A stretch of DNA of 64,000 nt from assembly GCA_035457345.1 (NCBI GenBank), contig DATIBT010000033.1, positions 2,390 to 66,389 of the forward strand, given 5' to 3'. This DNA comes from Candidatus Saccharimonadales bacterium. Its GTDB lineage: Bacteria > Patescibacteriota > Saccharimonadia > Saccharimonadales > EFPC-124. A program made the position numbers and the translations under genes. Below, in pieces: positions 16,080 to 43,501 of this stretch. Below the pieces are notes generated by a model. It was not told the origin of the DNA, made no database searches, and saw nothing but the letters and a program-made list of their open reading frames with translations. How positions within the stretch are numbered: the stretch's first letter is position 1; each line of letters starts with the position of its first letter.

Positions 16080-16139
16080 TGAATGCCCCCCTTTTAAATT
16101 ATTGTAGCCGCGTAAGAATTACACCGCGTCTTGAGCTTA

Positions 16140-16167
16140 AGTATAACCATAAGCGCGTTGCCGTCAA
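16140..16167 (-). promoter_or_regulatory. Sigma70-like promoter for pilA (minus strand: TTGACG-16 nt-TATACT; RBS AAAGGGGGG)
   Basis: On the minus strand, TTGACGgcaacgcgcttatggtTATACT lies about 55 nt upstream of the pilA ATG, followed by a strong G-rich SD. Confidence 0.4.
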
Positions 16168-16193
16168 CTCTTTGCTTGTGGATAACTAGCTCT

Positions 16194-17414: not shown

Positions 17415-17416
17415 AG

Positions 17417-19213
17417 TTATTCGCGAGTTACACGCAGGATTTCCTCAATGCTCGTTTGGCCGCGCAAGGCTTTAATAAACCCGTCCATTTGCATGGTGAC
17501 CATACCCTCTTTGATAGCTTCTTCCTGAATGGTGTTGCTGGTGGCGTTGGTGGTGATGAGCTTTTGCACTTCTACGCTATTAGACAATACCTCGTAAATA
17601 CCCATGCGCCCCTTGTAACCGCTGTGCCCGCAATTATCACAGCCTTCGGGCTTGGGGCGGTAGAGGCGCGTAATGGTACCGCCTTTTATTGATGTCTCGG
17701 CGCCAATATCTTCGCCAATTTTTTGGCTAGCGGCTAATTTTTCGAGTTCGGCGTAATGTTCAAATGTGTCTTTATCTTTTATGCCAAACATTTGGCCAAT
17801 GGTAGTGAGCTCGCCATCTTCGGGCTTGTATTCCTGCTTACATTTTGGGCACAGGCGGCGCACTAAGCGCTGGCCAACAACGGCCCGGACGGTGCTGGCA
17901 ATAAGAAACGGCTCAATGCCCATGTCGAGCAAGCGCGGCAAACAGGTGGCGGCGTTGTTGGTGTGCAAGGTACTAAATACTAAGTGGCCGGTTAAGGCGG
18001 CCTGTACGGCGAGGTCGGCGGTTTCGCCGTCACGAATCTCACCCACCATGATAATGTTGGGGTCCTGGCGCAGCAGTGCGCGCAAACCGGCCACAAACGT
18101 CATGCCTGCTTTGGGATTCACCTGTGTTTGGTTGGTGCCCATAATGCGGTACTCCACTGGGTCTTCGACGGTTGAAATGTTCACGCCAGGACTGTTCAAT
18201 AAGGTGAGCGTGCTGTACAAACTGGTTGATTTACCTGAACCAGTAGGGCCGGTTACTAAGATCATGCCGTGGGGTTGTTTGATTGCTTCGTTGATTTTAT
18301 CGAGGCTCCATCCCCAGTAGCCGAGTTGCTCTAGGGTGAGTGCCTTGTTTGATTCATCAAGCACGCGCATAACCACTTTTTCGCCGTCTTGGATTGGGAG
18401 GGTTGAGACACGCATGGCATATAGTTTGCCGCCGACCGTCACTTTAAAGCGGCCGTCTTGCGGCACGCGGCGTTCGTCGATTTTAAGATTACTCAAAATT
18501 TTAATGCGCGAAACAAGCGCAGCCAGTACATTGCGAGGTAGTTTGTTCGCCTCGCGTAAAATGCCATCTATGCGGTAGCGAACTTGTACAAAATCTTCCC
18601 TCGGCTCAATATGAATGTCGGACGCACCGGCACGAATAGCATACTCTAGCAGCAAATTGACCGTTTGGGCAATTGGGGAGTCCTCGGCGACGTCTTCTTC
18701 GCTGACCAACTCCTCTTTTTGTTCCTCTTTTTCTACTTCAACGTCAATTACCTTGGTCAGCTCATTGCTAATGCCGCCAATGCCTTCGCGGTACTGGTCC
18801 AAGGCCGCCAAGATATTATCTTTGGTCGCAATATAGAGCGCAAAGCTGGCGCCGATGTATTTTTTTAGGAAATCCACTGCCTGGACATCGTCTGGGTCTT
18901 CCATGGCGAGTTGTTTGATGCCATCTTTAACAGCAAAAATAACGGCGTTGTACTGCCGGGCAATGCGCTCTGGCAGCAAGCTGATGGTCTTTTTTGTGAT
19001 GGTTTTGGGGTCGAGTTCGATAAACGGTATGCCAATTTCTTTAGCGTAGAGTTCCGTCAATTCTTTTTCGTTGATGAGCTCGGCCTTTAGCACCAGATCC
19101 TGTAATGGCTTGCCGGTCTTCTTTTCTTCGGCACGCACCTTATCAAGCTCGGCAGGTTTGACCTTGCCAGCTTTAGATAACAGCGTCTCCAGTGTCGCAT
19201 CGGCTATGCGCAT
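17417..19213 (-). CDS. pilB: Type IV pilus assembly ATPase PilB (GspE family)
   Basis: N-terminal GSPII_E_N domain, Walker A GPTGSGKST, Asp/His boxes, tetracysteine motif CPKC...CDNCGHSGYKGR. Start set at the internal ATG (MRIADATLE); the ORF extends to 19264. Confidence 0.9.
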   Translation of the reverse strand: MRIADATLETLLSKAGKVKPAELDKVRAEEKKTGKPLQDLVLKAELINEKELTELYAKEIGIPFIELDPKTITKKTISLLPERIARQYNAVIFAVKDGIKQLAMEDPDDVQAVDFLKKYIGASFALYIATKDNILAALDQYREGIGGISNELTKVIDVEVEKEEQKEELVSEEDVAEDSPIAQTVNLLLEYAIRAGASDIHIEPREDFVQVRYRIDGILREANKLPRNVLAALVSRIKILSNLKIDERRVPQDGRFKVTVGGKLYAMRVSTLPIQDGEKVVMRVLDESNKALTLEQLGYWGWSLDKINEAIKQPHGMILVTGPTGSGKSTSLYSTLTLLNSPGVNISTVEDPVEYRIMGTNQTQVNPKAGMTFVAGLRALLRQDPNIIMVGEIRDGETADLAVQAALTGHLVFSTLHTNNAATCLPRLLDMGIEPFLIASTVRAVVGQRLVRRLCPKCKQEYKPEDGELTTIGQMFGIKDKDTFEHYAELEKLAASQKIGEDIGAETSIKGGTITRLYRPKPEGCDNCGHSGYKGRMGIYEVLSNSVEVQKLITTNATSNTIQEEAIKEGMVTMQMDGFIKALRGQTSIEEILRVTRE

Positions 19214-19285
19214 AATTATTCTATATTGTAGCTGATGACGCTTATGATTGCTATGCACCCCCACGCGTCAGGTATAATGTTCCCG

Positions 19286-19771
19286 ATGGAATATAAGTTT
19301 GTCTGTAAGACTACCGATGACACCAAGCGGCTTGCCGAAGAGATGGGTAAGGCGCTGCACGGTGGCGAGGTTATTGAGTTCCACAGTGATCTGGGCGGGG
19401 GCAAAACCACCTTCATGAAAGGGCTGGCCGTTGGCATGGGTGTGGTAGATGTGGTGCAGAGCCCAACCTTTTCAATCAGCCAACTGCATAAAGCGGCACA
19501 TGGCTTAGAACTGCATCATTTTGATTTTTATCGGCTCGATGACCCCGGCGTGGTGCGAGCTTCACTCGTTGAATCACTCGCCCAGCCCAATGCGGTCGTG
19601 GCAATAGAGTGGGGCGAGACAGTGCATGATGTGCTGGGCGCCAATATTATCTCTATCACTCTCACTGTGCAGGATGACGACGCGCGCGTTGTTACTATCG
19701 CAGTGCCCGCAGTAGCTGAACATGTTGCCAAAATATTGCAAAATTACCAACAAAATAGGACAATTGCCTGA
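19286..19771 (+). CDS. tsaE: tRNA threonylcarbamoyladenosine biosynthesis protein TsaE
   Basis: P-loop GDLGGGKTTFMKGLA plus SPTFSI and LHHFDFYRL motifs of TsaE/YjeE. A TATAAT at 19273-19278 lies 7 nt before this ATG (possible leaderless start); alternative starts at 19277 and 19235. Confidence 0.8.
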   Translation: MEYKFVCKTTDDTKRLAEEMGKALHGGEVIEFHSDLGGGKTTFMKGLAVGMGVVDVVQSPTFSISQLHKAAHGLELHHFDFYRLDDPGVVRASLVESLAQPNAVVAIEWGETVHDVLGANIISITLTVQDDDARVVTIAVPAVAEHVAKILQNYQQNRTIA

Positions 19772-20620: not shown

Positions 20621-22558
20621 TCACGCAGCCGCCGGGGCGGCGAAGAGCGCTTGCAGCCCTTCTGCATCGAGCGATTCGACTTCGAGCAGCTTGGTGCGCA
20701 GCAGCTCAAGTTTTTCGCGATGCCCGGTAAGTAGGGTGATCGCTGTCTGTTCAGCCTCCTTTACGAGCTTGTCAATCTCGGCAGTGACGTCGGCCAGGCG
20801 CGGGTCATGGCCTGAAGTTCCGAGTGGCACTTGGGCAGTGTACTTCTCGCCCATGCCCACTTTCGTCACCATGTAGGTGGCGAGTTGGGTTGCGACTTCG
20901 AGGTCAGACTCGGGGCCTGTGGTGAAGTCGTCGCCAAAGATCACCCGCTCGGCGGCCCGTCCGCCCATGTAGTAGGCGAGCCGGGCTTTGAGCTGTTTGA
21001 CTGTTAGGTACAGCCAGTCGCCGGTGTCCATGCGGGTATGGCCGCCGGATCCGCCTCTGGGCACAATGGTTACCCGGTGGGGCGGGTCGCCATGCTCTAG
21101 CAGCATCGCTACCAGTGCGTGGCCGCTTTCGTGGTATGCCGTGTAGTTGCGGTCACGCTCGGCTACTTCCCGGTTGCGTGCCAGGCCCACTTCGATGATC
21201 TCCAGGGCATCCCTGAAGTCCTTCATGGTGACACTTGGCGCGTCCCGCTTGATAGCAAGCAGACCTGCCTGGTTGCATAGAGCAGCCAGCTTTGCGCCGG
21301 TCATGCCGCTGGTGAGTCGCGCCAGCTCGGCATACGACACGTCGTCGTCCACTTGGGCGAGCTTAGCGGCATGGAGCCGCAGGATCAGCTCGCGTGCCTT
21401 AGGATCGGGTGCAGGCATGCTGGCATGCCGTGTGAAGCGACCCGGACGCATGATGCCAGGGTCGAGATCGTCAGGCCGGTTAGTCGCACCGAGCACTAGG
21501 ATTGTCGCGTCCGTGTCCTCTGTGAAACCGTCCATCTGCGCCAGCAGCTCGTTGAGCGTGTTGTTGAGCTCCTTGCTGCCGGAGTCGTCGTTGCTACTCC
21601 GCTTGCTGGCGATTGAGTCAATCTCGTCGATGAACAGAATACCCCGTCCGTGACGGCGAATTTGTGCGAACGCCTCCTTGACGGCGCGCGGGCCGTCGTT
21701 CAGCCAGCGGCCCATGAAGTCGGAACCCTTCATAGAGAAGAACGGCACACCGGCTTCACCAGCAATAGCTCGTGCCAACAGCGTCTTGCCCGTACCGGGA
21801 TCTCCCAGAAGGAGAATGCCGGTGAGGGGCTTGACCCCGCGCGCTTTGTACTTCTCGGGGTACTTGAGTGCGTCGACGCTTTGGGCGATTTCGGCAATGA
21901 CCTCGTCGGCACCGCCAACATCCTTGAAGCGCACGTTGGGTATGGCGGCGGGCGCTACCACCACGCCAGATGACTTCAGGCTATTTCCTATGCTCATACT
22001 CCTTAATGTGGTGCGATTGAGCCATATCAGGAGTAGGAGGAACAGGAATAGGAATAGGAATCCAAAGAACCACTGGTATTTTTCGGCAAAGCCCTTGCCT
22101 GCCACGGTCAGTGGGACACGTGGATTGGCCTTTTCGGCCGCCTCGACAAGATTCGGGCCGTAGCCTGTGGGGTAGGCCACCAGATAACCCTCACCATCCT
22201 TTAGCGTGACGGTCATCTGGTTGTGGTCGTTTTGGAGCTCTAGCTCCTGCACCTTCTGCTGCTTCAGGTCGGCATAGAACTGGCTGATCGGTTTGGTGTC
22301 TGGCTTGTGCTTCTCCGGCGAGGCAAGTAATGGCCACATGAGGAAGAAGACCATCAACGCCAACACTGGCCATACCGGTTTCAAGTGCACTGCGACCGGC
22401 TTGGCCTTCTCGCGCCACCAGCGCTTAAACTGTAGAACGTTCACCACTCTCCTAGTTTTTCTAGGTTTTGCGGACTTGTTGATTTTAAAATGAACTCGTA
22501 CATTAGTAAATGGCGCATTCCAGTAGTGTTTGACGTATGCCAAAAATACAGCGTACAA
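20621..22558 (-). CDS. ftsH: ATP-dependent zinc metalloprotease FtsH
   Basis: Two TM helices; AAA Walker A GDPGTGKTLLARAIAGEAGVPFF; SRH TNRPDDLDPGIMRPGRF; zinc site HESGHALV. The N-terminal extension before TM1 is unusual, so the true start may be internal. Confidence 0.93.
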   Translation of the reverse strand: MYAVFLAYVKHYWNAPFTNVRVHFKINKSAKPRKTRRVVNVLQFKRWWREKAKPVAVHLKPVWPVLALMVFFLMWPLLASPEKHKPDTKPISQFYADLKQQKVQELELQNDHNQMTVTLKDGEGYLVAYPTGYGPNLVEAAEKANPRVPLTVAGKGFAEKYQWFFGFLFLFLFLLLLIWLNRTTLRSMSIGNSLKSSGVVVAPAAIPNVRFKDVGGADEVIAEIAQSVDALKYPEKYKARGVKPLTGILLLGDPGTGKTLLARAIAGEAGVPFFSMKGSDFMGRWLNDGPRAVKEAFAQIRRHGRGILFIDEIDSIASKRSSNDDSGSKELNNTLNELLAQMDGFTEDTDATILVLGATNRPDDLDPGIMRPGRFTRHASMPAPDPKARELILRLHAAKLAQVDDDVSYAELARLTSGMTGAKLAALCNQAGLLAIKRDAPSVTMKDFRDALEIIEVGLARNREVAERDRNYTAYHESGHALVAMLLEHGDPPHRVTIVPRGGSGGHTRMDTGDWLYLTVKQLKARLAYYMGGRAAERVIFGDDFTTGPESDLEVATQLATYMVTKVGMGEKYTAQVPLGTSGHDPRLADVTAEIDKLVKEAEQTAITLLTGHREKLELLRTKLLEVESLDAEGLQALFAAPAAA

Positions 22559-26346: not shown

Positions 26347-26808
26347 ATGCCTACGCGTTCTGCTGGTTTTGCATTGATCGAACTGGGGGTCGTCCTGGTG
26401 ATTATTGGCTCACTGTTATTTATTGTGGTGACGCAGACGGTTCAATCTCACTCGCAGTCGGGTAATATCCAGCGGCGCGCCGACGTGAACAGTATTTTGA
26501 ACGCTGTATTGGCGTACGCAAAAGATAATGGTGGCAAGCTCCCGGAAGGCGTGGCACAGCAGCCAAAACTTATTGCTTCAACAAATGCCGAGAGTGCCGT
26601 GAACTTATGCCATGCCTTGGTGCCCAAGTATTTAACCACCATTCCTATTGATCCGAATAATGGGTTAGCCGTGCCGGTCGGCTCCAAATGCAACGAAAAG
26701 AATGCCCGCTATAGCAGCGGCTACATGGTCCAAGCAACTCCGGACAATAAGGTGCTTGTCAGTGCGCCTGGTGCCGACGGCACTGACGCTATTTTTGCCC
26801 AGAATTAA
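26347..26808 (+). CDS. Type IV pilin (paralog of the pilin at 43502)
   Basis: Prepilin leader MPTRSAGFALIELGVVLVIIGSLL. The C-terminal half (LCHALVPKYLTTIPIDPNNG) is alignable with the pilin at 43502 (LCTALVPTYIADIPLDPVTG). Start at the internal ATG 26347; the ORF frame begins 26266. Confidence 0.75.
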   Translation: MPTRSAGFALIELGVVLVIIGSLLFIVVTQTVQSHSQSGNIQRRADVNSILNAVLAYAKDNGGKLPEGVAQQPKLIASTNAESAVNLCHALVPKYLTTIPIDPNNGLAVPVGSKCNEKNARYSSGYMVQATPDNKVLVSAPGADGTDAIFAQN

Positions 26809-27968
26809 GCCGCTAGCACTATTCCTTTGTTGGCATCGACTGTTACTTTTTGACCTTCTTTTAGGATGGAGGTAGCATTTTTTGTACCTGTAACGCACGG
26901 CTTTTTGAGCTCGCGCGCGATTATGGCTGCATGGCTGAGTACGCCACCTAGGTCGGTGACAATGGCTGCGGCTTGTTGCATGAGCGGCAGGTAGTCAGGG
27001 GTGGTCATGTGGCAGACAAGCACGTCGTTCGCGTTCAAGCGCACCTTTGCAATGGCGTCGGCAGCTACAATACGCACCACGCCACTTGCCTGGCCTACGC
27101 TGCCTGCTCGCCCTTTTACAAGTGCTGCCTTGGTTGTTTTGACTGGTGGTTGCACCTCGTAAATGTCGGCCAGCAGACGATTGTAATCGATAAACCAAAT
27201 GCCATACTCTTCTGATTTTGAGGTTTCAAAATAGCCTTTGAGATAATCATGGGCGAACTCAGCCCCTAGCTCTTTTTTGAGTTTCTTTTGCTGCTCAGGA
27301 TTAGTTACTTTAATTTTTTCAACCACTTCAATCAGGTGGTCTTTAATGCCTGGCTGCAGGCCGTCGAACTTCCATGTTTTAAAATCGTAGGCAAATGTGG
27401 TTGGTGGCACATCTTCGTAGAACCCCTGAGTGAGGGAGTTGGGCTGACCTTTTTTGGCCTCGCCAAAGATACCCTTGTTGGTGACGGTAAAGATGGTGGC
27501 CCATTTGGCGTCGTCGTGGGGCACAAAGTCAACGTCGTAATCTTTGGGATTGACCTTTTGCTCGTCGAACCACTCAAGCGCCTTTTTAATGCTATAACCG
27601 CGCATGCGTAATTTGGGTACGGTTGGTTTGAGGGGGATAAGCCGGATGGCACATAATTCGTCGCCATGTTGCTCTACGAACATGCGCAGCGTTACGGTAC
27701 GCTTGGCAACTTCGGTGCCTTTAAAGCGCGACGGCTTACCAAACGGCAGGCCGATTATCTTTTGCAATGTGTCGAGCCGGTCATGTTTGCGGGCGTCTTC
27801 CTCGCGTAGCTCCTTGGCGCGCGGATCACCAATTGCCTCAAACCATTCTGTAAGTGAAATTTGTTTTTCGTAGAGTTTGGTCAGATAGGAATCCATAATC
27901 CTCCTTACAGGGTTGTTATTGGCCGCGCTTGCAAAATATACAGTTGGCCGGTTGTGCCATACGCCCAC
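26805..27968 (-). CDS. PEP-utilizing enzyme mobile (phosphohistidine) domain protein, C-terminal fragment of a PEP synthase/rifampin-phosphotransferase-like gene
   Basis: Phosphohistidine swivel-domain motif TDLGGVLSHAAIIARELKKPCVTG near the C-terminus; overlaps the upstream fragment by 64 nt in another frame. Confidence 0.55.
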   Translation of the reverse strand: MGVWHNRPTVYFASAANNNPVRRIMDSYLTKLYEKQISLTEWFEAIGDPRAKELREEDARKHDRLDTLQKIIGLPFGKPSRFKGTEVAKRTVTLRMFVEQHGDELCAIRLIPLKPTVPKLRMRGYSIKKALEWFDEQKVNPKDYDVDFVPHDDAKWATIFTVTNKGIFGEAKKGQPNSLTQGFYEDVPPTTFAYDFKTWKFDGLQPGIKDHLIEVVEKIKVTNPEQQKKLKKELGAEFAHDYLKGYFETSKSEEYGIWFIDYNRLLADIYEVQPPVKTTKAALVKGRAGSVGQASGVVRIVAADAIAKVRLNANDVLVCHMTTPDYLPLMQQAAAIVTDLGGVLSHAAIIARELKKPCVTGTKNATSILKEGQKVTVDANKGIVLAA

Positions 27969-28687
27969 TCAACGTCAACAGGGTAGCCATAGTGATCTTC
28001 TATGGCTGTCACCGTACGGGCAAGCTCTTTGAGCTGCCTGGGCTTGAGGCTTGGGTTGTTTTGTTTGTGCGGCGGAACTGCTGCTTCTATGGTAGCGCCT
28101 TGCTCGTAGGTAAGAAAGGTGAGTTTAGTGGCAATGTCTTGATCCAAGAGGTTCCCTTGTTTGGTGAGGAGGTAGTTGTCGGGGGTAGCAGTGCCCTGTA
28201 CAAGCAGCTCGCCTAATCCGTAAACCGACTCAATGACTAATTCGTTACGATTACCGGTAACAGGGTTGGCGCTGAATGCCACGCCGGCAATCTCACTATG
28301 GATCATTTGTTGCACGAGCACGGCAAGGTCAAAGCTCTCCCCAGAGGCGTAGGCTCTTGTCCTGGCGGATTGCGCGGAAGCTATGCAGGTTTGCACTGCC
28401 TGGCAAAGCTCGCTTTGTGTAACATGCAACAATGTCGCAAATTGTCCGGCCCACGATTTGTCTTTGCCGTCTTCGCCAATACCAGATGAGCGGACGGCAA
28501 CGTTTTCTAATTCGAGCTCTTCGTAGGCGGTGAGTAACTCTTCGTCAGAAATGGCGGAGCCCGCTAGCACGGCAAACCCCGTCGGCACTTGGTGGCCAGC
28601 GGCCATGAGCTCCCCTAGGCGTGCCGCCTTGCCACCCACAAGGGGTGTGTCGCTGGCCCGAATATCTGTAAGATACTTGATGCTCAT
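27905..28687 (-). CDS. PEP/pyruvate-binding (PPDK_N, ATP-grasp) domain protein, N-terminal fragment of the same PEP synthase-like gene
   Basis: N-terminus LVGGKAARLGELMAAGHQVPTGFAV, later VRSSGIGEDGKDKSWAGQFATLLHV, and YILQARP at the end = the ATP-grasp domain of PEP synthase / PPDK. Confidence 0.6.
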   Translation of the reverse strand: MSIKYLTDIRASDTPLVGGKAARLGELMAAGHQVPTGFAVLAGSAISDEELLTAYEELELENVAVRSSGIGEDGKDKSWAGQFATLLHVTQSELCQAVQTCIASAQSARTRAYASGESFDLAVLVQQMIHSEIAGVAFSANPVTGNRNELVIESVYGLGELLVQGTATPDNYLLTKQGNLLDQDIATKLTFLTYEQGATIEAAVPPHKQNNPSLKPRQLKELARTVTAIEDHYGYPVDVEWAYGTTGQLYILQARPITTL

Positions 28688-28748
28688 TGTCGGTTGCTGG
28701 AGTTACTTGTTGTGTTGTGGCTCAAATGCCGGATGCGGTGATGGGGGA

Positions 28749-29135
28749 TTACTCTAGTTTCCATGTAATTTTCTCTCCACCATTTGGCAAATAGTAGGCA
28801 GCACTTTTTTGGACGAGCACGTCATCTACATAGAAGTTCCAATATGTATTATCAGCTCCGCCCTTTACGCCGTTAATAGCGGTAACGAACGGGCCGTACG
28901 ATGAATGTTGTGTTTCTACGCTCGCATGTGCTTTGAGCTGATCAAGTATGCTCGTGCCTTCGCTGGCGATAAACGACAGCTCGGTCGTTTGGGCGGGTAG
29001 CCCCTGTTGGGTTACGGTTTCAGCGCCCTTTACGGCGGTGTGAGATGGTTTTTCGACCAATGTTAACGTAGTGATGCCGAGACCGATGGCCGCAAGCGCC
29101 AGTACACTGGTCGCAATAGTTTTTATTTTTTTCAT
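28749..29135 (-). CDS. DUF4430-domain secreted protein
   Basis: Signal peptide MKKIKTIATSVLALAAIGLG. DUF4430-like C-terminal motif YGPFVTAINGVKGGADNTYWNFYVDDVLVQKSAAYYLPNGGEKITW. Start at an internal Met. Confidence 0.5.
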   Translation of the reverse strand: MKKIKTIATSVLALAAIGLGITTLTLVEKPSHTAVKGAETVTQQGLPAQTTELSFIASEGTSILDQLKAHASVETQHSSYGPFVTAINGVKGGADNTYWNFYVDDVLVQKSAAYYLPNGGEKITWKLE

Positions 29136-29268
29136 ATCTTTTCCCCCATCGTCATTATTGCGCTTATGTAGCGTGAGGGTCAATATGTTTACGCTATATG
29201 TTGTGTATTAGACGATGCGGAACAGAGGTTGCGAGCTTACCGATGAAGTGCCATAATGGGTTTTGCAT

Positions 29269-29345
29269 CGGAGATTAGCGCAGCCTGGTAGCGCGCCGCG
29301 TTCGGGACGCGGAGGTCGTGGGTTCAAATCCCGCATCTCCGACCA
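29269..29345 (+). tRNA. tRNA-Pro (anticodon CGG)
   Basis: Acceptor CGGAGAT/ATCTCCG (C1-G72), D arm GCGC-AGCCTGGTA-GCGC, anticodon loop TTCGGGA, T arm AGGTC-GTGGG-TTCAAAT-CCCGC, discriminator A, CCA encoded. Confidence 0.88.
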
Positions 29346-29614
29346 TGATGTTATCCACAAAAAAGTTGCATGGTACCGTTCGGTATACCATAAGAATAGC
29401 CGGGGTGCTATGTGAAAAATTTATCATTCCACCCCTGTAGAACAAATCAAATTGAAGCCACAAAGAACCAATTTTACAAGATTGTTAAGTTAATGTAGTT
29501 TAGCATATACTGCGTGAGGCTCAATAATTTTGGTCTATGCAAGCCATGTATAGGCTTAGTTTTTGCTGCCAAAAAACTGTTTCTTCGTACCCAGCAATGG
29601 GGAAGGGAGTGAGC

Positions 29615-30160
29615 ATGCGGAACATGCTCAACAGGCTCAAGGGACGTACCGCGCTGCTGATCGCCGGTGCGGCCACCGCGGCGGCAATCGTCGGCGTGTC
29701 GGGCGGGGCGGCCTACGCGGTCATCACCGGCGCCACGTCCGGAACGGCCGTGCAGCATTCAATCGCCCGCAACGACACCGCGCTGCTGGTGCCCGGAGCA
29801 GCCAACACCTGGCAGACCGTCAGCGGCATGGTGCGGACCGTCTCGGTGCCGTCCGGCCAGCGGCGGCTGTTCATCGCCACGTACACCGCGGAGTCGCAGT
29901 GCACGGGCGGCAGCTGGTGCTCGGTGCGCATCGTGGTGCGCAACAACGCCACCGGCGCCGTGAGCGAGCTGTTGCCGGCCTCGGGCACGGACTACGCCTT
30001 CGACGCCCCGTCGACGGATCTGTGGGAAGGCCACGCCCGCACCCAGAGCACCAACTACCTGCCGGCGGGCAGCTACACCTTCTCCGTGCAGGCCAACCGG
30101 GTCGGCGGCAGCACGTTCCGCCTCGACGACATGCATTTCGAGGTCGTCGCGACCACCTGA
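29615..30160 (+). CDS. Secreted hypothetical protein encoded on a roughly 75% GC segment with actinobacterial-type codon usage
   Basis: RBS GGGAAGGGAG upstream of ATG 29615. Signal peptide MRNMLNRLKGRTALLIAGAATAAAIVGVSGGAAYA. Third codon positions almost all G/C. Two Cys; beta-rich; no recognisable family. Confidence 0.55.
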   Translation: MRNMLNRLKGRTALLIAGAATAAAIVGVSGGAAYAVITGATSGTAVQHSIARNDTALLVPGAANTWQTVSGMVRTVSVPSGQRRLFIATYTAESQCTGGSWCSVRIVVRNNATGAVSELLPASGTDYAFDAPSTDLWEGHARTQSTNYLPAGSYTFSVQANRVGGSTFRLDDMHFEVVATT

Positions 30161-30180
30161 CCCGCGGAGCAACAGTTGAA

Positions 30181-30213
30181 AGCCTCGGCCGCCCACCACG
30201 CGGGCGGCCGAGG
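30181..30213 (+). terminator. 13-bp GC-rich hairpin (gcctcggccgccc-accacgc-gggcggccgaggc) without U-tail, directly after the high-GC gene
   Basis: Perfect inverted repeat read in the sequence; this hairpin style is typical of high-GC Gram-positive terminators. Confidence 0.45.
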
Positions 30214-30243
30214 CCCCAACTATCCCCTGGCAGCCAGGTATTT

Positions 30244-31623
30244 ATGAGCAGTCCTCTTACGTTTACGCCGATTAAGCTTTACAATAGTGACATTATGCTT
30301 ATGTTTATTAAGCGCCTGTGGCACGACGCCGTACAGGGTGGCATTAAAGACAATGCCAGTGGCCCTCAGCGTGAGCTTGTCTATTTTATTAATGTGTATT
30401 CGTGGCTGGCTTTCTTGTCGTTGAGTGGTTTTGGCGTTCTGCACATTATCTCCGAAGGAAATCCGCAGTTAGGAAATCTTGAACTTCTTTGCGCCGCCGT
30501 TATCGTGTTGAATATGCTGGCACTGCGAGCCACCTACAACATTGCCATTGCTAGGTTTGGCCTCCTTGCCACTGTATTAACGGCACTCATTATTATGCTT
30601 ATGACCGGGGGCATGCAGAACACTGGCATTTTTTGGCTCTATGTATTCCCTGTCCTTGCATTCTTTTTGGCCGGGCGCCAAGGGGGTATTGCGTGGATGG
30701 CTGTGCTGTACGCAGCCATTTTCTTATTGTTCGCGCTTGAGAGGTACGAGTGGGTGGACATTCCGTATGCCCCTATTGTCTTGCGTCAGGCACTGATAAG
30801 CCTATTTGTGGTAACGATTGGCGTAGCCGTATATCAGCGCTCGCGCGATAAATATCAGAAAGAGGAGCAGGAAATTGATCAAGCTAAGAGCCAATTTGTG
30901 ACGCTGGCTTCGCACCAGCTCCGGACGCCCATTGCTGCGGTGAACTGGTTTGCAGAAATGCTCCTGAATGGCGATGCTGGCAAGCTCAACAAAGAGCAGC
31001 ACGATTACACGCGGCAGCTATACGCCAGCAACCGCCGGTTGTCTGGCATGGTAGATGTTATGCTACTTGTTTCCAGCCTGGAGCTCAATGAGTTGCGTAT
31101 TCGTTTGGAACCTACGGATATGGCGGCGTTGAGCCATCGGTCGTTAGAAGCGCAAATCCAAAAAGAGGGTAAGCACGACCTTCATATTGAAGAGCGGTAT
31201 GAAGATGGCTTGCCACGCATACGCGTAGACGCGCATGTCATGGGTATTATTATGCAGAATCTATTCTCGAACGCCCTTAAATATACTCCCAAAGGAGGCG
31301 CCGTAACAGTAACGATCAAGCGCAGCCCAGAGAAATTGACGATTGGCAGCAAGGGAAGCATAGAGATTGCGATAACAGATACAGGATACGGCATTCCTAC
31401 CTCACAACGGGACAAAGTGTTTGGCAAACTCTTCCGGGCAGATAATATAAAAATCAAAGACACTGACGGCACTGGCTTGGGGCTATATAGTGTGCGTGCC
31501 CTTTTATCGCAGGTGGGCGGCCGCATATGGTTTGAGTCCCAGGAAGACAAGGGCACGACGTTTTTTGTCCTTTTGCCTATTGAGGGTATGAAAAAACAAC
31601 ATGATTCCGAGGGAAAAAGGTGA
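30244..31623 (+). CDS. Sensor histidine kinase with N-terminal polytopic membrane sensor domain
   Basis: Six predicted TM helices, then HisKA (LASHQLRTPIAAVNWFAEML, phospho-His) and HATPase_c (N box NLFSNALKYTP, G1 DTGYGIP, G2 GTGLGLYSV). Start at ATG 30244 after the GC-rich segment. Confidence 0.85.
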   Translation: MSSPLTFTPIKLYNSDIMLMFIKRLWHDAVQGGIKDNASGPQRELVYFINVYSWLAFLSLSGFGVLHIISEGNPQLGNLELLCAAVIVLNMLALRATYNIAIARFGLLATVLTALIIMLMTGGMQNTGIFWLYVFPVLAFFLAGRQGGIAWMAVLYAAIFLLFALERYEWVDIPYAPIVLRQALISLFVVTIGVAVYQRSRDKYQKEEQEIDQAKSQFVTLASHQLRTPIAAVNWFAEMLLNGDAGKLNKEQHDYTRQLYASNRRLSGMVDVMLLVSSLELNELRIRLEPTDMAALSHRSLEAQIQKEGKHDLHIEERYEDGLPRIRVDAHVMGIIMQNLFSNALKYTPKGGAVTVTIKRSPEKLTIGSKGSIEIAITDTGYGIPTSQRDKVFGKLFRADNIKIKDTDGTGLGLYSVRALLSQVGGRIWFESQEDKGTTFFVLLPIEGMKKQHDSEGKR

Positions 31624-36255: not shown

Positions 36256-36276
36256 GCTGGATAGGGAATACGCGGC

Positions 36277-37998
36277 ATGGTGGGCACCTACGCTGGTATA
36301 GATGACAAAAAGCTATACGATATTCTGAGCGAGCTTAATTATGTGCCCGAGGAAGAGCTCAAGCGAGCCCAGGCAATTGCAAGCGCTGAGAGTATCTCTT
36401 TATACGATGCCCTGCTAAAAAGTGACATTATATCCGACGAAAACCTAGGCAAGCTCATTGCCTATTCTTTGCAGTTACCGTTTACGTCGTTAGCACAAGC
36501 AAGCATTCCAGAAGACATACTTCACATTACCCCTCAGGCGGTGGCTGCGCAGTTTCATGTGCTCACATATGGCATGGACGAAGAGAAGGGTTTAAAGATT
36601 GCCGCCTCAAACCATTTGCAGACAGATGTATTTGACATGCTGGCTAAGAAAGCTGGCGTTAAGAACTACCGTGTCTTTTTTGCTACTGACCGAGATATAC
36701 AAGACGCCCTTCGATTGTACAAAAAAGAGTTAGGCCTGGCGTTTGAAAGTCTGCTTGCTTCTAAGACGGGGGACGTCCAGGTTGAAGTGCCGGTTGCGAA
36801 GATTGTGGATACGGTCATTGACTATGCTTATATTAACAAAGCTTCCGACGTGCATATTGAACCAACGCGCGGTGTGACCTTGGTGCGTTTTAGGATAGAC
36901 GGTATTTTGCATGACATGGTGCGTCTCCCTCATGCCACACATGGTCAGCTGGTAGCCCGTATTAAGGTGTTGGCACGCCTCCGTACAGATGAGCACTTTA
37001 GTGCCCAGGATGGCCGCATGCGAATGAGCGTGGAGCAAGAAGACCTCGACGTCCGCGTATCGATTGTGCCCACAGTAACGGGCGAGAAGGTGGTGCTTAG
37101 GTTGCTTTCCAGCCACAACAGGCAGTTTAGCTTAACGGATTTAGGCATGGGCGAAGCCGATCTTAAAAAGATCCGCGCCGGATTTATGCGTCCATTTGGC
37201 ATGGTTATGTCTACCGGGCCAACAGGATCGGGTAAGACCACCAGTATGTACGCTATCTTAAAGATCTTAAACACGCGCGAAAAAAATATTGCCACCATTG
37301 AAGATCCAGTTGAATACGAAATTGACGGTATTAACCAGATTCAGGCAAACCCCAAAACCAATCTGACATTTGCGAACGGCTTACGGTCGCTGCTTCGCCA
37401 AGACCCTGACATTATGTACGTTGGTGAAATCCGCGACGAAGAGACCGCCGACATTGCCATTAATTCTGCCATGACCGGCCACCTCGTGCTATCTACCCTC
37501 CACACAAACAATGCAGCCACGACGCTGCCACGGTTGATGGACATGAAGATTGAGCCGTTCTTGGTCGCAAGCACGGTGAACGTTATTATTGGCCAGCGTT
37601 TGGTGCGCAAAATCTGCGATCGCTGCCGGGTGAGTTTTGAGCTTAAAAAGACAGAGCATGGCTGGCACGGTGAAGAAGAGGCAACGGCAACGCAGCTCTC
37701 CCACATAGACCCTAAGCAACTGTCCCGGCACTTTGGCGACGGGTCGAGTGTGCGATTGTATAAAGGCAAGGGGTGTAATGTGTGCCACGAAACAGGCTAC
37801 CGGGGCCGCGTGGGAATCTTTGAAGTGCTAGAGGTGTCGCCAAAAATTGAGGCGCTTATTACCCAAAAGGCAGATGCCGATGCCATCTTACAGCAAGCAA
37901 TAAGCGAAGGTATGACGACCATGATGGACGACGGCTTAGATAAGGTGCAACAAGGCATTACGACCGTCGGTGAGATAATGAGGGCGACCCGGGCATGA
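36277..37998 (+). CDS. Second PilB/GspE-family secretion ATPase
   Basis: GSPII_E_N-like N-domain, Walker A GPTGSGKTT, His box, tetracysteine CDRCR...CNVCHETGYRGR; paralog of the pilB at 17417. Confidence 0.9.
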   Translation: MVGTYAGIDDKKLYDILSELNYVPEEELKRAQAIASAESISLYDALLKSDIISDENLGKLIAYSLQLPFTSLAQASIPEDILHITPQAVAAQFHVLTYGMDEEKGLKIAASNHLQTDVFDMLAKKAGVKNYRVFFATDRDIQDALRLYKKELGLAFESLLASKTGDVQVEVPVAKIVDTVIDYAYINKASDVHIEPTRGVTLVRFRIDGILHDMVRLPHATHGQLVARIKVLARLRTDEHFSAQDGRMRMSVEQEDLDVRVSIVPTVTGEKVVLRLLSSHNRQFSLTDLGMGEADLKKIRAGFMRPFGMVMSTGPTGSGKTTSMYAILKILNTREKNIATIEDPVEYEIDGINQIQANPKTNLTFANGLRSLLRQDPDIMYVGEIRDEETADIAINSAMTGHLVLSTLHTNNAATTLPRLMDMKIEPFLVASTVNVIIGQRLVRKICDRCRVSFELKKTEHGWHGEEEATATQLSHIDPKQLSRHFGDGSSVRLYKGKGCNVCHETGYRGRVGIFEVLEVSPKIEALITQKADADAILQQAISEGMTTMMDDGLDKVQQGITTVGEIMRATRA

Positions 37999-39035
37999 GC
38001 ATGAGGCTCTCGCGCAAAGAGAAATTGGCCGTTATATCCAGCCTTGCTACCATGCTTAATTCGGGCATCTCCATTCTGGAAGCCGTCGACACTCTGTTAG
38101 AGGACAATAAGGGGAGCTCACGTCGTCTCTTGTTACTATTCAGAGAGGCATTGAACGACGGCCACATGCTATCGACTGCCATGGAAAAAGCGACTGGCGT
38201 ATTTGACCCGGTAGACATAAACCTCATACGTGCCGCCGAAGAAGCGGGCACGCTCGACGAGGCACTGCACGATCTCACGCAGACCATTAAAAAAGACATG
38301 GCGTTTAGCGACAAAATTCGCGGCAGCCTTTTGTATCCAGTCTTTATTATGGTCATTTTTTTTGGTGTGTTGATTATGATATTGACCTTTGTGGTGCCCC
38401 GCATGTCAAAGGTCTTCTCTAGCCTCAGGGTTGACCTGCCTGCGCCGACTAAGTTTCTGATTGAGCTGTCCAATTTTATCTTAGCGAATTGGATATATCT
38501 GGTGGTTGTGGCGGTGGTGGCCGCGGTATTGTTGGTGCTATTTTATAAAACACAGAAGAAGCTGCTTTTTAACGCGCTGTCGCGTTTGCCACTATTTAAC
38601 ACATTGGCACAGCATATTGATTTCACCCGGTTCACTCGCAGTATGGCATTACTGCTGCGGGCGGGCGTGCCGGTCGCAGAGGCGCTCGATTTATCCCAAA
38701 AAGTTGTCATACGGCACGACGTAAGTCACGCCATTGCCCGTATGAAACAAGGGGTGAACACTGGCCACCCTATGTCCGAGGGGCTGAAGGCATCGCATAT
38801 TGCACCCTCGATCATGGTGCACATTTTACAGACCGCCGAACACAGTGGCACACTCGAAAAGACCATGCAGGAGCTTTCCGAGTATTTTGAAACTCAAGTG
38901 GCGCGCCGCTTAAAGGCAATCACTACGCTTATAGAACCGGTGCTGATTGTAGTGATTGGTGTGTTGGTGGGCGGCATGATGATGGCGGTAATTGCACCAA
39001 TCTATAACATCATAAGCCAAATTGGCTCGAGGTAG
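37995..39035 (+). CDS. Second PilC/GspF-family platform protein
   Basis: Two GspF-type repeats with TM segments, 346 aa; ATGA overlap with the upstream ATPase gene. Confidence 0.85.
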   Translation: MSMRLSRKEKLAVISSLATMLNSGISILEAVDTLLEDNKGSSRRLLLLFREALNDGHMLSTAMEKATGVFDPVDINLIRAAEEAGTLDEALHDLTQTIKKDMAFSDKIRGSLLYPVFIMVIFFGVLIMILTFVVPRMSKVFSSLRVDLPAPTKFLIELSNFILANWIYLVVVAVVAAVLLVLFYKTQKKLLFNALSRLPLFNTLAQHIDFTRFTRSMALLLRAGVPVAEALDLSQKVVIRHDVSHAIARMKQGVNTGHPMSEGLKASHIAPSIMVHILQTAEHSGTLEKTMQELSEYFETQVARRLKAITTLIEPVLIVVIGVLVGGMMMAVIAPIYNIISQIGSR

Positions 39036-39529
39036 TGGCTATGCATGTGCCACGCTCCAGCGCCAGGCAGCCAGGGTTTACGCTCGTTGAGCTTTTGCTT
39101 GTTATGGGGCTGGTGGCGGTCCTTGCCGGAATAACATCGGTTAACCTGTTCAGCCCGCAAACCAAAGCCAACATAAACAGCCTAACAGACCGGCTTGCCG
39201 CAGATATTAAGAGCCAACAAATCAAGGCCATGTCTGGTGACAGTATGAGCGCCAGCGCGGCACAGGAGCACGGCGTGTATATCCAAACTGGCACCTACAC
39301 TCTATTTAAAGGGACAGCTTATAGTGGTGCAGATACCGATAATATCCCCATTGCCAGCGAAGGCGGCGTCACGCTCAGCACTACCTTTCCGTCTACACAG
39401 GTGGTATTCGACAAGGGCAGCGGCGAAGTCATTGGCTTCACGAACGGCTCAAATACTATTACACTCAGCGGTTCGGGGGAAACAAAAACAATAACCATTA
39501 ACCGTTACGGGGCGGTGACGGTCAACTGA
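39035..39529 (+). CDS. Pseudopilin / minor pilin (GspH/FimT-like)
   Basis: Prepilin motif RQPGFTLVELLLVMGLVAVLAGI; 164 aa. Confidence 0.7.
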   Translation: MAMHVPRSSARQPGFTLVELLLVMGLVAVLAGITSVNLFSPQTKANINSLTDRLAADIKSQQIKAMSGDSMSASAAQEHGVYIQTGTYTLFKGTAYSGADTDNIPIASEGGVTLSTTFPSTQVVFDKGSGEVIGFTNGSNTITLSGSGETKTITINRYGAVTVN

Positions 39530-39530
39530 T

Positions 39531-42002
39531 ATGTATAAGCAGCGCGGACAAACAATCATTGAGCTTCTGGTGGCGATAGGCATTTCAGCCATTATGTTGC
39601 CTGCGCTCGCTACTGCAGTGTTTGCGTCACGCGAGGGGCGGGCGCAAGATGCTGAACGCCTTCAGGCGGCAGCGTTATTGCGAGAGACTGATGAAGCGGT
39701 TCGTTCTGTGCGCGAAAAGGGGTGGGCCGCCTTCGCCGTTAACGGTACATACCATCCAGCCATAAATATAGCGGCATGGAACTTAGTCGCAGGGTCGGAG
39801 GTGGTGGGTAACTTTACACGCCAGGTGGTGATATCAGACGTGCAGCGTAATGCGGCTGGAGCCATTGTACCGAGTGGGGGTACGATTGACCAATCGACTA
39901 AAAAAGTAACGACAACGGTGTCATGGTCACAGCCAATGAACGGGTCGCTTAGCACTGAAACGTACTACCAACGCTATCTGGGTAATGCTGCCTGGGCACA
40001 GACAACTCAGGCTGAATTTAACGCGGGAACCAAAACTAATACAACCGCAACCTCTACCGGGGACGGCCAAGTTGAATTGGCCGGTGGCGGAGGCGGAAGC
40101 CACGTGCAGACAGCCGGCTCTAATAATGATGCTAGCGCCACGACTATCGCACAAGCCCTTCCGGCAAATGTGAACGGCGAGAGCTTAATTGTCGCAAGCA
40201 TATCTTGGGATACCACTTCTTCTACTACAGTTACCTGTTCTGATAATCAGAATAATACCTATACTACCGTCGTTAATATTAACGACACGACTAATACCCA
40301 GGCGCTGGCAATTTGTTACGCATCGAATGTCCCAGCTGCGGCTACTACTGTTACTGCTACGTTTGGCGCCGCATCTACACTACGTCGAATCACGGTAAGC
40401 GAGTACAGTGGCGTGGCGGCCGTGGTGCCGGTGGATGTGAGCAAAACAAACATTGCCAACGGTACAACGGCCACAGATAACATTACTAGTACTGCCGCCA
40501 CAACTACGGCTGCAAACGACCTTATTTACGGTGCAGTGGTCGAAACATCGGCAGGGACGGCGACGATCACGGGCGGCACCGGCTTTACGCAACGCAATAC
40601 AAATGCTACCGATACGACGCTTGCGGTGCAGGATCGTATTTTAGGGACTGCTGGCTCTACCTCCTCGACACACACCTTCAGTGCTGCTCTCAGATATGCC
40701 GCAGGGATGGTGGCATTCAAGACGAAGTCGTCAACGGCCAATTGGGCTTCTCCTTCTGTTGGCGGCACGTATGATGCGAGCGGTACTCAGGATGCGCTCG
40801 ACGTATTTACTGCAGGTAACTACGCCTATTTATGTAACGGTTCGGTACTGACGATTTTGAATATCTCAAACCCGACCTCGCCAACGTTGGTCGGTACCTA
40901 CACGGCGTCATCAACGGTGCGGCATGTGTACGTTGATGGTAATTACGCTTATTTATCAACGGCAAGTGATACTGCCGAGCTCACTATTGTAAACATAACA
41001 AATCCCGCAAGCCCGACCCTTGCTTCGTCGGTCAACCTAACCGATACCAACGACGGCTTCGCAACATTTGTAACCGGTGGATACGCCTATGTTGGCCGCG
41101 CTCTCGACACAACCACAGGAACGAATGAATTCTACATTTTAAATGTTACCAATCCTGCCAGTCCTTCCGTATTGGGCAGCGTCAACTTAACCGGCGCAGT
41201 AAACAACATAAAAGTAAGTGGCAACTTCGCTTTTTTGGCAACTACTATTGATACGCAAGAGATGGTGGTCATTAATGTTACCAACAAAAGTTCGCCCACA
41301 TTGTCGACGAGTTACAACGCCGCAGGCACGTCAGATGCTAACGATCTTGGTATCCTGGGGACCGTCTTATACGTGGCAACAGTAGCCAATGCCTCTGGCG
41401 CCGAGGTGTTCGCACTTAATATAACTACGCCAACCTCACCGGCACTTTTAGGCACATACGAAACGGGGGCAAACGTAACCGGTGTTTCGGCAGTTCCTAA
41501 TAATTTGTTTTTATCGGTAGCGAATCAGCTGACGGTGTTGAATAATTCCAATCCGAGTAGTTTGCAGCTAAGGTCAACATTGGGCTTTGGGTCCCCGGCT
41601 AACGACGTTAAAGCCTGGGGCGATTATGTGTACGTCGCTACTGCCAGTAATACGCAGGAGATGGTGATTGTGGCGCCAACATTTGCGTCGAGCGGGTATG
41701 CGACGTCGGGTAGTTTTGATTCATCTACATTCGATGCCGGTGCTAGCGCGGCGTTTAACTATCTTACCTTTACGATCACAGAGCCGGCGAGTACCAACAT
41801 CAGCTTCCAGCTTGCCACTAACAACGATAACGCAACGTGGAACTATGTAGGCCCAGACGGTACGGCCTCTACCTTCTATACCTCGGCTCAGACCATACGC
41901 CTGAATACCGTTGGCCGTTATTTACGGTACAGAGCCGCCTTTACGGGACCGGGCACGTCGACCCCGGTGTTAAGTGACATATCGATAAACTATTCGCCAT
42001 GA
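39531..42002 (+). CDS. Giant prepilin-like protein with LVIVD-type beta-propeller repeats (putative pilus tip or surface adhesin)
   Basis: N-terminus MYKQRGQTIIELLVAIGISAIMLPAL (class III signal with Glu5). C-terminal half carries six or more repeats of the LVIVD pattern (GNYAYL...LTILNISNPTSPTLVGTY; TIVNITNPASPTL; YILNVTNPASPSVLGSV; VVINVTNKSSPTLSTSY; VFALNITTPTSPALLGTY; LTVLNNSNPSSLQL). Confidence 0.7.
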   Translation: MYKQRGQTIIELLVAIGISAIMLPALATAVFASREGRAQDAERLQAAALLRETDEAVRSVREKGWAAFAVNGTYHPAINIAAWNLVAGSEVVGNFTRQVVISDVQRNAAGAIVPSGGTIDQSTKKVTTTVSWSQPMNGSLSTETYYQRYLGNAAWAQTTQAEFNAGTKTNTTATSTGDGQVELAGGGGGSHVQTAGSNNDASATTIAQALPANVNGESLIVASISWDTTSSTTVTCSDNQNNTYTTVVNINDTTNTQALAICYASNVPAAATTVTATFGAASTLRRITVSEYSGVAAVVPVDVSKTNIANGTTATDNITSTAATTTAANDLIYGAVVETSAGTATITGGTGFTQRNTNATDTTLAVQDRILGTAGSTSSTHTFSAALRYAAGMVAFKTKSSTANWASPSVGGTYDASGTQDALDVFTAGNYAYLCNGSVLTILNISNPTSPTLVGTYTASSTVRHVYVDGNYAYLSTASDTAELTIVNITNPASPTLASSVNLTDTNDGFATFVTGGYAYVGRALDTTTGTNEFYILNVTNPASPSVLGSVNLTGAVNNIKVSGNFAFLATTIDTQEMVVINVTNKSSPTLSTSYNAAGTSDANDLGILGTVLYVATVANASGAEVFALNITTPTSPALLGTYETGANVTGVSAVPNNLFLSVANQLTVLNNSNPSSLQLRSTLGFGSPANDVKAWGDYVYVATASNTQEMVIVAPTFASSGYATSGSFDSSTFDAGASAAFNYLTFTITEPASTNISFQLATNNDNATWNYVGPDGTASTFYTSAQTIRLNTVGRYLRYRAAFTGPGTSTPVLSDISINYSP

Positions 42003-42496
42003 TACAACATGCTAACCAAAAAGGCTTTACTCTTGCCGAACTCCTCATTGTCATGGGGCTTATGTCGATGTTCATGTTGGTGCTGACCGATGTGTTTACG
42101 GCGGCAGTGACAGTACGGAGTGAGTCAGAGGCAACGTCTGCCGTGGCGAATGACGGACGGTTTTTATTATCTCGTCTCAGCTACGATATTGAATGTGCCA
42201 GCTCGATTACCACCCCTGCCAGTTTAGGGGCGAGCGGCGCCAGTCTTGCAATGGTCATAGACGGCGTGACGCATACCTACGCACTTTCGGGCGGAAACTT
42301 ACAGCTCACCAATAACCTCGGCACGAATAATCTTAACGGCAGTGAAACCACCATATCCGGTCTTACTTTTCAACGACTCGGCAACGCCGGTGGCAAAGAT
42401 ACGATACGGCTAAGTCTGACTGTTACGAGCGACGCCATCCGCGAAGGCGGATCGCCAGAAGCCGAAACATTCACCACTACTGTGGGGAGGCGGTGA
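41999..42496 (+). CDS. Pseudopilin / minor pilin (PilW/GspJ-like)
   Basis: Prepilin motif NQKGFTLAELLIVMGLMSMFMLVL; ATGA overlap with the upstream gene. Confidence 0.7.
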   Translation: MIQHANQKGFTLAELLIVMGLMSMFMLVLTDVFTAAVTVRSESEATSAVANDGRFLLSRLSYDIECASSITTPASLGASGASLAMVIDGVTHTYALSGGNLQLTNNLGTNNLNGSETTISGLTFQRLGNAGGKDTIRLSLTVTSDAIREGGSPEAETFTTTVGRR

Positions 42497-42885: not shown

Positions 42886-42886
42886 C

Positions 42887-43444: not shown

Positions 43445-43501
43445 TTGACTTAACGACCGAGTCAGGTAATATTAAGAGTAGAGTAAAAAGGGTATGCTTT
43501 T

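Follow-up and report, generated by a model that had tools for sequence, protein, structure and literature searches.

In the amelioration model of Lawrence and Ochman, genes of a composition atypical for the genome that carries them are reportedly taken as evidence of recent horizontal transfer, and tRNA-linked genomic islands form another described setting, in which a segment of deviant composition immediately follows the 3′ end of a tRNA gene and is missing in a relative. The gene described here shares features with both. It is located in a stretch of 64,000 nucleotides (nt), called the window throughout, from a contig of a soil metagenome-assembled genome (MAG) labelled Candidatus Saccharimonadales at NCBI (DATIBT010000033.1, positions 2,390 to 66,389 of the forward strand), where an open reading frame (ORF) at 29615-30160, encoding a product identical to the hypothetical protein VLA88_03695, stands between tRNA-Pro(CGG) and a histidine kinase gene. 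Like the genes treated by the amelioration model, this ORF has a guanine-plus-cytosine (GC) content at third codon positions (GC3) and a codon usage far from those of the host genome, and like a tRNA-linked island the segment directly follows a tRNA gene, deviates in composition and, by gene order, appears to be absent from a relative. In contrast to the amelioration model, the ORF alone is atypical, it lies behind a conserved leader of host type and it recurs in deeply diverged copies, none of which simple amelioration predicts. As far as can be told, a conserved AT-rich leader joined to a strongly GC-discordant ORF, recurring in an epibiont, appears to be undescribed. While the original prediction for this DNA had seen a very recent and direct acquisition from an actinobacterium, we favour, with a probability of roughly 45%, that a self-contained gene unit moves among Saccharimonadia and stems from an unsampled lineage with GC-rich coding DNA.

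The compositional and codon anomaly of the ORF is real and extreme. The segment 29600-30235 contains 70.3% GC and peaks at 72% in 300-nt windows, which confirms its GC-richness but not the value of about 75% given before, and it is to be compared with 52% for the whole window. The flanks behave as had been described: the AT-rich stretch 3′ of the tRNA gene (29346-29599) contains 37.4% GC (about 35% in the original prediction), and the GC content returns to 48.8% (about 48%) at the histidine kinase (30236-31623); tRNA-Pro(CGG) itself was found by two programs at the predicted place (Table 1). With GC contents of 0.59, 0.58 and 0.93 at the first, second and third codon positions, the ORF indeed carries G or C at nearly all third positions, and its GC3 lies 6.5 standard deviations above the 58 long ORFs of the window (mean 0.56 ± 0.057, maximum 0.74). 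By trinucleotide signature, the GC-rich segment is the most deviant 636-bp stretch of the window (z = 5.9).

The evidence that changes the reading of this anomaly comes from the DNA in front of the gene. The GC switch at 29600 had been taken as the junction between host and foreign DNA, which it is not: the AT-rich DNA preceding it constitutes promoter and leader of the gene itself, and it is homologous to the DNA upstream of the gene copies on two other contigs, L003 and L038. The leaders of the window and of L003 align continuously from about 29412 with 67% identity over 233 aligned nt (score 42), whereas real AT-rich segments used as controls reach scores of at most 12 (n = 102) and 20 (n = 354), and an nhmmer model built from these two leaders alone recovers the fragment upstream of the L038 gene (1-62) with E = 0.009. 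An ACAAnnTTGT palindrome, a putative operator, is present at the same place upstream in all six mid-GC copies whose promoter was read (window, L003, L038, L001, L034 and L040), three of which (L001, L034 and L040) are native-GC copies. The second hairpin of the 5′ untranslated region (UTR) shows compensatory changes, with CCCA/TGGG in the window, CCCAG/CTGGG in L003 and CAGGAT/ATCCTG at the equivalent place in L038. Because the leader is homologous across contigs, the change from AT-rich to GC-rich DNA some 25 nt ahead of the ATG belongs to the conserved traits of the unit; an abrupt intergenic GC switch such as this one should therefore be read with caution, as it marks a feature of the unit and not an insertion junction. 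The DNA upstream of actinobacterial copies contains 67-80% GC and no such leader. At the other end of the gene the 3′UTR outside the hairpin contains 52-62% GC, the enrichment being confined to ORF and hairpin. That hairpin, described before as a 13-bp GC-only structure lacking a U-tail, was found with its arms at 30182-30194 and 30202-30214 and no T-run directly 3′, and its region has a folding energy of -43.6 kcal/mol (z = -5.2). The small ORFs upstream of the different copies are unrelated, and the idea that such an ORF forms a further, conserved part of the unit was rejected. Furthermore, a repeat, GCGTGAGGNTCAATA (14/15 nt), occurs in two copies, which precede tRNA-Pro(CGG) and the ATG of the GC-rich gene by about 100 nt each, with the similarity reaching about 23/29 nt when the -10-like hexamer is included; it could represent a shared promoter or discriminator element or local conversion.

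The GC discordance of the window copy (GC3 0.93; window ORFs mean 0.56) is not unique, since at least three further copies are discordant with their surroundings: those on L003 (0.88; flanking genes 0.64-0.71), L038 (0.86; flanking alanyl-tRNA synthetase (AlaRS) gene 0.52) and L037 (0.82; flanking genes 0.47-0.62). Other copies are host-like, namely those on L007 (GC3 0.62, contig about 60% GC), L036 (0.60, about 53%), L004 and L009 (0.58, 51-53%), L040 (0.51, about 50%), L001 and L008 (0.48, about 52%) and L034 (0.41, about 50%). An AlaRS with 74-81% identity to those of named Saccharimonadales assigns L003 to the Saccharimonadia, and L038 has the same short AlaRS type, 63% identical to that of L003. 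This recurrence also bears on the technical explanation, that a 0.64-kb high-GC fragment was spliced into a Saccharimonadales contig during assembly. As would be expected of a chimera, the DNA comes from just one contig of a short-read MAG, and the protein was seen on no second contig; such a chimera would, however, need two joins 640 bp apart that exactly bracket an intact unit of ribosome-binding site, ORF and terminator, whereas the transition from leader to ORF is homologous in L003 and L038 at the same relative position and the architecture of AT-rich leader and GC-rich ORF is found in four independent assemblies (NCBI MAG, Logan, JGI and NCBI metagenome). A chimera is very unlikely because the same join is present in independent assemblies.

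The homologues do not support a very recent direct transfer either. In a search of 5.8e9 proteins the best homologue shares 58% amino-acid identity, and among the loci fetched the closest local nucleotide match, to Pilimelia anulata, reaches 73.5% identity over 223 nt; the actinobacterial match above about 80% nucleotide identity, which the original prediction had named as support for recent transfer, was thus not found. In species-representative genomes 11 of 18 loci belong to Actinomycetota (Pilimelia, Solirubrobacteraceae, Acidimicrobiia and others), the others being distributed over Chloroflexota, Acidobacteriota, Proteobacteria and one Saccharimonadales, and all of these homologues match the GC content of their hosts. 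In a neighbour-joining bootstrap analysis of 135 columns, all mid-GC copies group with two Pilimelia genes (95%), and within this group a crown clade joins L037 and L003 (95%), while the window and L038 copies form deep separate branches; a grouping of the mid-GC copies that leaves out Pilimelia is obtained in 8% and a pairing of the window with Pilimelia alone in 1% of the bootstraps. The age of the splits was judged by the fraction of identical codons among identical amino acids, observed versus predicted from codon usage, which amounts to 0.66 versus 0.53 for window and L003, 0.53 versus 0.52 for L003 and L038, and 0.39-0.46 versus 0.34-0.38 in the crown clade, whose members are 73-81% identical. 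As codon sharing is near the codon-usage expectation for almost every pair, all splits are old when measured by synonymous turnover. In this subfamily, Actinomycetota and an epibiont-type lineage exchanged the gene at least once, in one direction or the other, and by this tree the actinobacterial link exists at the level of the subfamily only (Pilimelia, 95% bootstrap).

It could still be argued that the tRNA-Pro locus received the gene directly and very recently from a high-GC host among the actinobacteria and that the epibiont-type promoter was captured or evolved later. A GC3 of 0.93 looks unameliorated, the relative synonymous codon usage (RSCU) correlates with that of actinobacterial ORFs, the family is concentrated in Actinomycetota, the Pilimelia genes lie within the same 95% clade and contain the 223-nt match named above, and Saccharibacteria in culture have Actinobacteria as their hosts and show natural competence (PMC10633639). 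Against this stand the distance of the best homologue, the 1% bootstrap value for the window-Pilimelia pairing, the GC-rich upstream DNA of the actinobacterial copies, the end of the GC enrichment at ORF and hairpin, the lack of integrase and attachment (att) site in the regions searched (see below), and an AT-rich leader which ends no more than 25 nt before the ATG and whose homology extends over three contigs with ORFs of just 42-52% identity, a distribution that makes independent promoter capture implausible. Moreover, little or no host-to-Saccharibacteria gene flow was reported for characterised pairs, and no strong host-to-TM7x transfer signal is seen in published work (PMC7427843, PMC8406219). 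We consider the direct transfer unlikely, and since ORF-limited GC discordance recurs in deeply diverged copies, the GC anomaly alone can neither date a transfer nor identify its source.

The codon usage of the ORF had been called actinobacterial. This is correct insofar as its RSCU correlates with r = 0.90 with actinobacterial ORFs and with r = 0.54 with the ORFs of the window; the choice among GC-ending codons, however, fits the host equally well, with a log-likelihood of -89.8 when host usage is assumed and of -87.3 when that of Pilimelia is, a difference of just 2.5. Neither the effective number of codons plotted against GC3 nor the GARP/FYMINK measure, a proxy for donor GC, is discriminating. 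The share of arginine among arginine and lysine, R/(R+K), climbs with GC3 from 0.67 to 0.92, and because amino acids shift with GC3 this trend fits GC mutation pressure in a donor and points away from codon-level selection. Two types of leader are distinguished, type 1 going with high GC3 and type 2 with native GC3.

These data bear on the alternative that the gene is a long-standing Saccharimonadia gene whose coding sequence was kept GC-rich in some lineages, possibly by selection for a stable or highly translated mRNA under the strong type 1 promoter or by biased gene conversion, while the crown-clade copies with a different leader relaxed to genomic GC. A GC3 of 0.82-0.93 in four mid-GC contexts, despite saturation of the synonymous sites between all copies, would be expected of such maintenance in place, as would the restriction of the enrichment to the ORF, the pairing of leader type with GC3, the use of the host's own commonest GC-ending codons and a motif following the -10 hexamer that is common to the region upstream of tRNA-Pro. 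It accords less well with the shift of R/(R+K) with GC3, with a second, unrelated GC-rich ORF beside the L003 copy, with the absence of the GC-discordant loci of both window and L003 from close relatives, and with the finding that none of the 58 ORFs, those of pilin (0.62) and RecA (0.55) included, has a comparable bias. Also, we are aware of no case in which selection raised the GC3 of a single gene by about 37 points. Maintenance in place is thus a doubtful explanation, although it is placed before the direct recent actinobacterial transfer and behind the unsampled GC-rich, Saccharimonadia-like donor in our ranking of these three. A related proposal, which we likewise hold only tentatively and regard as doubtful, is that soil Saccharimonadia carry a dedicated surface-lectin cassette with a conserved epibiont-type leader, the ORF of which is, over evolutionary time, held at or repeatedly reset to the GC and codon composition of high-GC Actinomycetota; this could happen by mRNA selection or by recurrent in-place replacement of the ORF by alleles of the host or of another high-GC donor. 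If this was true, the composition of the gene would mark the interface between epibiont and host instead of a one-off transfer.

The second ORF beside the L003 copy (1496-1969 of L003) encodes a predicted membrane protein of 157 amino acids (aa) directly downstream of the gene, has a GC3 of 0.85 against 0.64-0.71 in the flanking genes and an AT-rich promoter of its own, and is unrelated both to the family gene and to a 158-aa ORF at the same place in L039. In L001, a Saccharimonadales MAG, the native-GC copy (4530-4952) lies among hypothetical genes about 1.5 kb from a protein with Peptidase_S74, a tail-fibre chaperone domain; these surroundings may be a prophage remnant. A synteny of L001 with L038 and with L034 by way of a 400-aa neighbour was rejected because the proteins are unrelated. 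Vertical inheritance of an AlaRS-adjacent copy, suggested by the genes of L003 and L038 both being convergent to AlaRS, was not established, as the closer relatives of L003 are without the gene.

That the gene was acquired relative to its kin, as originally proposed, agrees with the nearest relative available, which is without the gene at the same locus, judged by gene order and coordinates alone. This relative, a 4.6-kb JGI contig (m2JqBXJF of 3300078620) with a kinase (P0192) 69% identical to that of the window, carries PPDK_N, DUF6580, DUF4430, 238 bp (2396-2633) and a divergent MASE6 histidine kinase. The distance from DUF4430 to the kinase is 1,111 bp in the window as opposed to these 238 bp, and since only 85 + 77 (tRNA) + 59 = 221 bp of the 1,111 bp look native, about 0.87 kb, comprising the AT-rich stretch and the GC-rich gene, are extra. 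Similarly, the copy located between FtsA and AlaRS in L003 is missing from L039, whose AlaRS is 81% identical to that of L003. More distant histidine kinase loci are neither syntenic nor accompanied by a tRNA gene. The further claim of an integration at the tRNA locus was not borne out, and in contrast to integrase-mediated tRNA islands the locus holds a single gene. No integrase or transposase domain was detected in the ORFs of 24-47 kb (about 10 kb upstream and about 17 kb downstream), several of which have no Pfam match and the annotated ones of which encode His_Phos_1, YmdB, PEP/PPDK, DUF4430, histidine kinases, response regulators, type IV pilus proteins and AsnB; no att-type direct repeat of the tRNA 3′ end and no flanking inverted repeat exists in 29200-30400 (seed 7); and no other copy examined lies near a tRNA gene. 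An Rfam scan of 28700-30700 returned the tRNA alone. Carriage by viruses, phages or plasmids was searched by IMG/VR pattern scans and by tblastn against INPHARED phages and PLSDB plasmids, all of which were empty, and repeats resembling those of diversity-generating retroelements proved to be merely chance GC-rich 18-mers.

We return to the gene unit of roughly 45% probability that would move among Saccharimonadia. The unit would measure about 0.85-0.9 kb and comprise an AT-rich promoter with a palindromic operator, a 5′UTR with two hairpins, a strong Shine-Dalgarno sequence, an ORF of 181 codons and GC-rich terminal hairpins. It would be distributed patchily among soil Saccharimonadia and have come to lie here between tRNA-Pro(CGG) and the histidine kinase gene, in a position left unoccupied in the nearest relative. 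The likeliest route would be DNA uptake by natural transformation and subsequent illegitimate recombination, natural competence having been described for Saccharibacteria in the work cited above. The immediate donor would most likely be another, unsampled Saccharimonadia-like lineage with GC-rich coding DNA and not an actinobacterium, because promoter and leader are of epibiont type and the coding DNA alone is GC-rich; the subfamily does share its ancestry with actinomycete (Pilimelia) genes. Such a donor accounts for the leader, for the enrichment limited to the ORF, for the absence of the gene in close relatives of the window and of L003 and for the old divergence, and it also accounts for the second GC-rich ORF beside the L003 copy and for the R/(R+K) trend. 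Several points weigh against it. The Saccharimonadia-like loci fetched span 47-60% GC and none exceeds 60%, which makes the donor lineage hypothetical, and to our knowledge no Saccharimonadia near 70% GC have been described. Leader type 1 is common to ORFs that are not nearest kin (L003 groups with the crown clade at 95%), and the histories of leader and ORF may differ. The empty site is read from gene coordinates alone and may reflect a deletion in the P0192 relative instead of a gain, and the function of the product is deduced from its predicted fold alone.

In line with the Sec-type signal peptide and beta protein of the original prediction, the gene encodes a product of 181 aa in which sequence features indicate a signal peptide and an AlphaFold2 (AF2) model indicates a beta sandwich. 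The putative signal peptide consists of the parts expected for Sec export, a positively charged MRNMLNRLKGR, a hydrophobic TALLIAGAATAAAIVGVSGGA and the cleavage motif AYA before V, and Ala35, at position -1 of the predicted cleavage site, is retained by at least 90% of 43 homologues, which also share the motifs TAES.C, WCS.R, G.D.AFD, W and DD. In the model, residues ~45-180 form an eight-stranded beta sandwich (AF2 pLDDT, predicted local distance difference test, 89), a compact fold that superposes on the heads of C1q and TNF and would thus place the domain in the C1q/TNF-like jelly-roll superfamily. Searches with the product in Pfam, NCBIfam, PHROG and PDB sequence profiles matched no family; the Pfam hidden Markov models of C1q (PF00386) and TNF (PF00229) were unmatched, and the sole Pfam match, DUF2793 at E = 0.081, is below the cut-off. 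A profile search yielded 1,605 family clusters at 50% identity, 287 of which are below 1e-30, and the product belongs to a large unnamed family that has no Pfam or NCBIfam model. No paralogue was found within the window. In relatives the same head is joined either to an SLH anchor of the cell wall or to a collagen-like stretch, whose Pfam Collagen match does not reach the curated cut-off (P0042, P0043, L015 and L017).

The nearest solved folds are bacterial TNF-like lectins, the N-terminal domain of BC2L-C from Burkholderia cenocepacia (BC2L-C-Nt, 2wq4) and PLTL from Photorhabdus laumondii (9ib6; PMC12914763). Although the fold is similar, sequence identity is merely 13-16%, which is too low to transfer binding-site residues, and no profile match to PDB chains was obtained; the family of the window protein differs by its predicted cleavable signal peptide, and sugar binding and oligomeric state are fold-based predictions for the window protein. 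BclA of the Bacillus exosporium and complement C1q carry such heads on collagen stalks, while the window protein would consist of signal peptide and head with neither stalk nor anchor. In Chlamydia Pgp3 the TNF-like domain is the C-terminal part of a three-domain, plasmid-encoded virulence protein to which there is no sequence relationship. Taken from fold and domain context, the product is probably an exported, trimeric, ligand-binding head: the precursor would be exported by Sec and cut after AYA35, and the mature part, a C1q/TNF-like jelly roll that measures about 15 kDa and has a single conserved pair of Cys residues, would most likely form a trimer and serve outside the cell as a binding head in the manner of a lectin or adhesin. 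Host recognition and attachment by ultrasmall epibionts are poorly understood, and the window protein is a plausible candidate for such an interaction. It has the profile of a host-interaction factor because it combines a predicted secreted TNF-like lectin fold, gain or loss between close relatives, actinomycete kin at the subfamily level and a conserved leader of its own.

Table 1. Features of the GC-rich gene unit and its neighbours (positions in the 64,000-nt window)
Feature	Position	Strand	Remarks
DUF4430 gene	28749..29183	-	left native neighbour and synteny anchor; Pfam PF14478, 2.8e-14; also adjoins in the relative's contig
tRNA-Pro(CGG)	29269..29345	+	ARAGORN; Rfam RF00005, 64.7 bits; 85% identity to the window's tRNA-Pro(TGG)
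Boundary stretch adjoining the tRNA	29346..29411	.	unalignable to other leaders; left end of the extra DNA probably here
AT-rich promoter and 5′ leader of the gene	29412..29614	+	homologous to the L003 and L038 leaders; a spacer in the original prediction
Palindrome ACAAGATTGT	29476..29485	+	overlaps the -35 hexamer; putative operator
Sigma-70-like promoter TTGTTA-N18-TATACT	29482..29511	+	consensus scan; TATAAT at the aligned position in L003 and L038; predicted transcription start near 29518
GCGTGAGGCTCAATA	29512..29526	+	abuts the -10 hexamer; 14/15 copy at 29171-29185 upstream of tRNA-Pro
First 5′UTR hairpin, then T-run	29532..29566	+	terminator- or attenuator-like
Second 5′UTR hairpin CCCA-GCAA-TGGG	29590..29609	+	folding; abuts the purine-rich Shine-Dalgarno GGGAAGGGAG
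Signal peptide, codons 1-35	29615..29719	+	predicted cleavage between AYA and V; helix of residues 3-28 in the model
Mature C1q/TNF-like jelly roll (predicted) and stop codon	29720..30160	+	invariant Cys96 and Cys102
13-bp all-GC hairpin, 7-nt loop	30182..30214	+	repeat search and folding
Second terminal hairpin CCTGG-CAG-CCAGG (5 bp)	30226..30243	+	hairpin 30226-30238, then TATTTAT; GC-rich segment ends here
MASE6 histidine kinase	30295..31623	+	right native neighbour; NCBI-annotated start; closest relative P0192, 69% identity

On the right side of the unit, the start of the kinase is at 30295 according to the NCBI annotation and possibly at 30244, leaving at most 59 nt of native DNA between the hairpins and the kinase, which may now rely on read-through past these hairpins. 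A frame that is open from 29563 to 31623, running from the leader across the GC-rich gene (out of frame) into the kinase, gives rise to an artefact ORF of 686 aa. On the left side, a PPDK/PEP-synthase-like enzyme is encoded at 26805-28687 by two ORFs, PPDK_N (260 aa) and PEP-utilizers (387 aa), which overlap by 64 nt; the split looks conserved and not like a sequencing error, because the relative's contig also has a 260-aa PPDK_N gene.

Elsewhere in the window there are two type IV pilus clusters, one at 9500-19300 (PilN, PilM, pilin, PilC and PilB) and one at 36270-43500 (PilB, PilC, pilin and an 823-aa LVIVD-repeat protein), and RecA/RecX are encoded at 5446-7129; RecA and the two clusters fit a competent epibiont. 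The FtsH gene (20621-22558) has a GC3 of 0.70 compared to the window mean of 0.56, and a cluster of hypothetical ORFs at 50400-54650, with a GC3 of 0.64-0.72 and no Pfam match, lies amid tRNA-Gly(TCC), tRNA-His(GTG) and tRNA-Arg(TCT). The second most deviant composition of the window is found at 57900-59500 (62-67% GC, trinucleotide distance 0.51-0.53), where the overlapping hypothetical ORFs 58031-58747(-), 58852-59484(-) and 58771-59415(+) have no Pfam match; this region may represent older foreign DNA.

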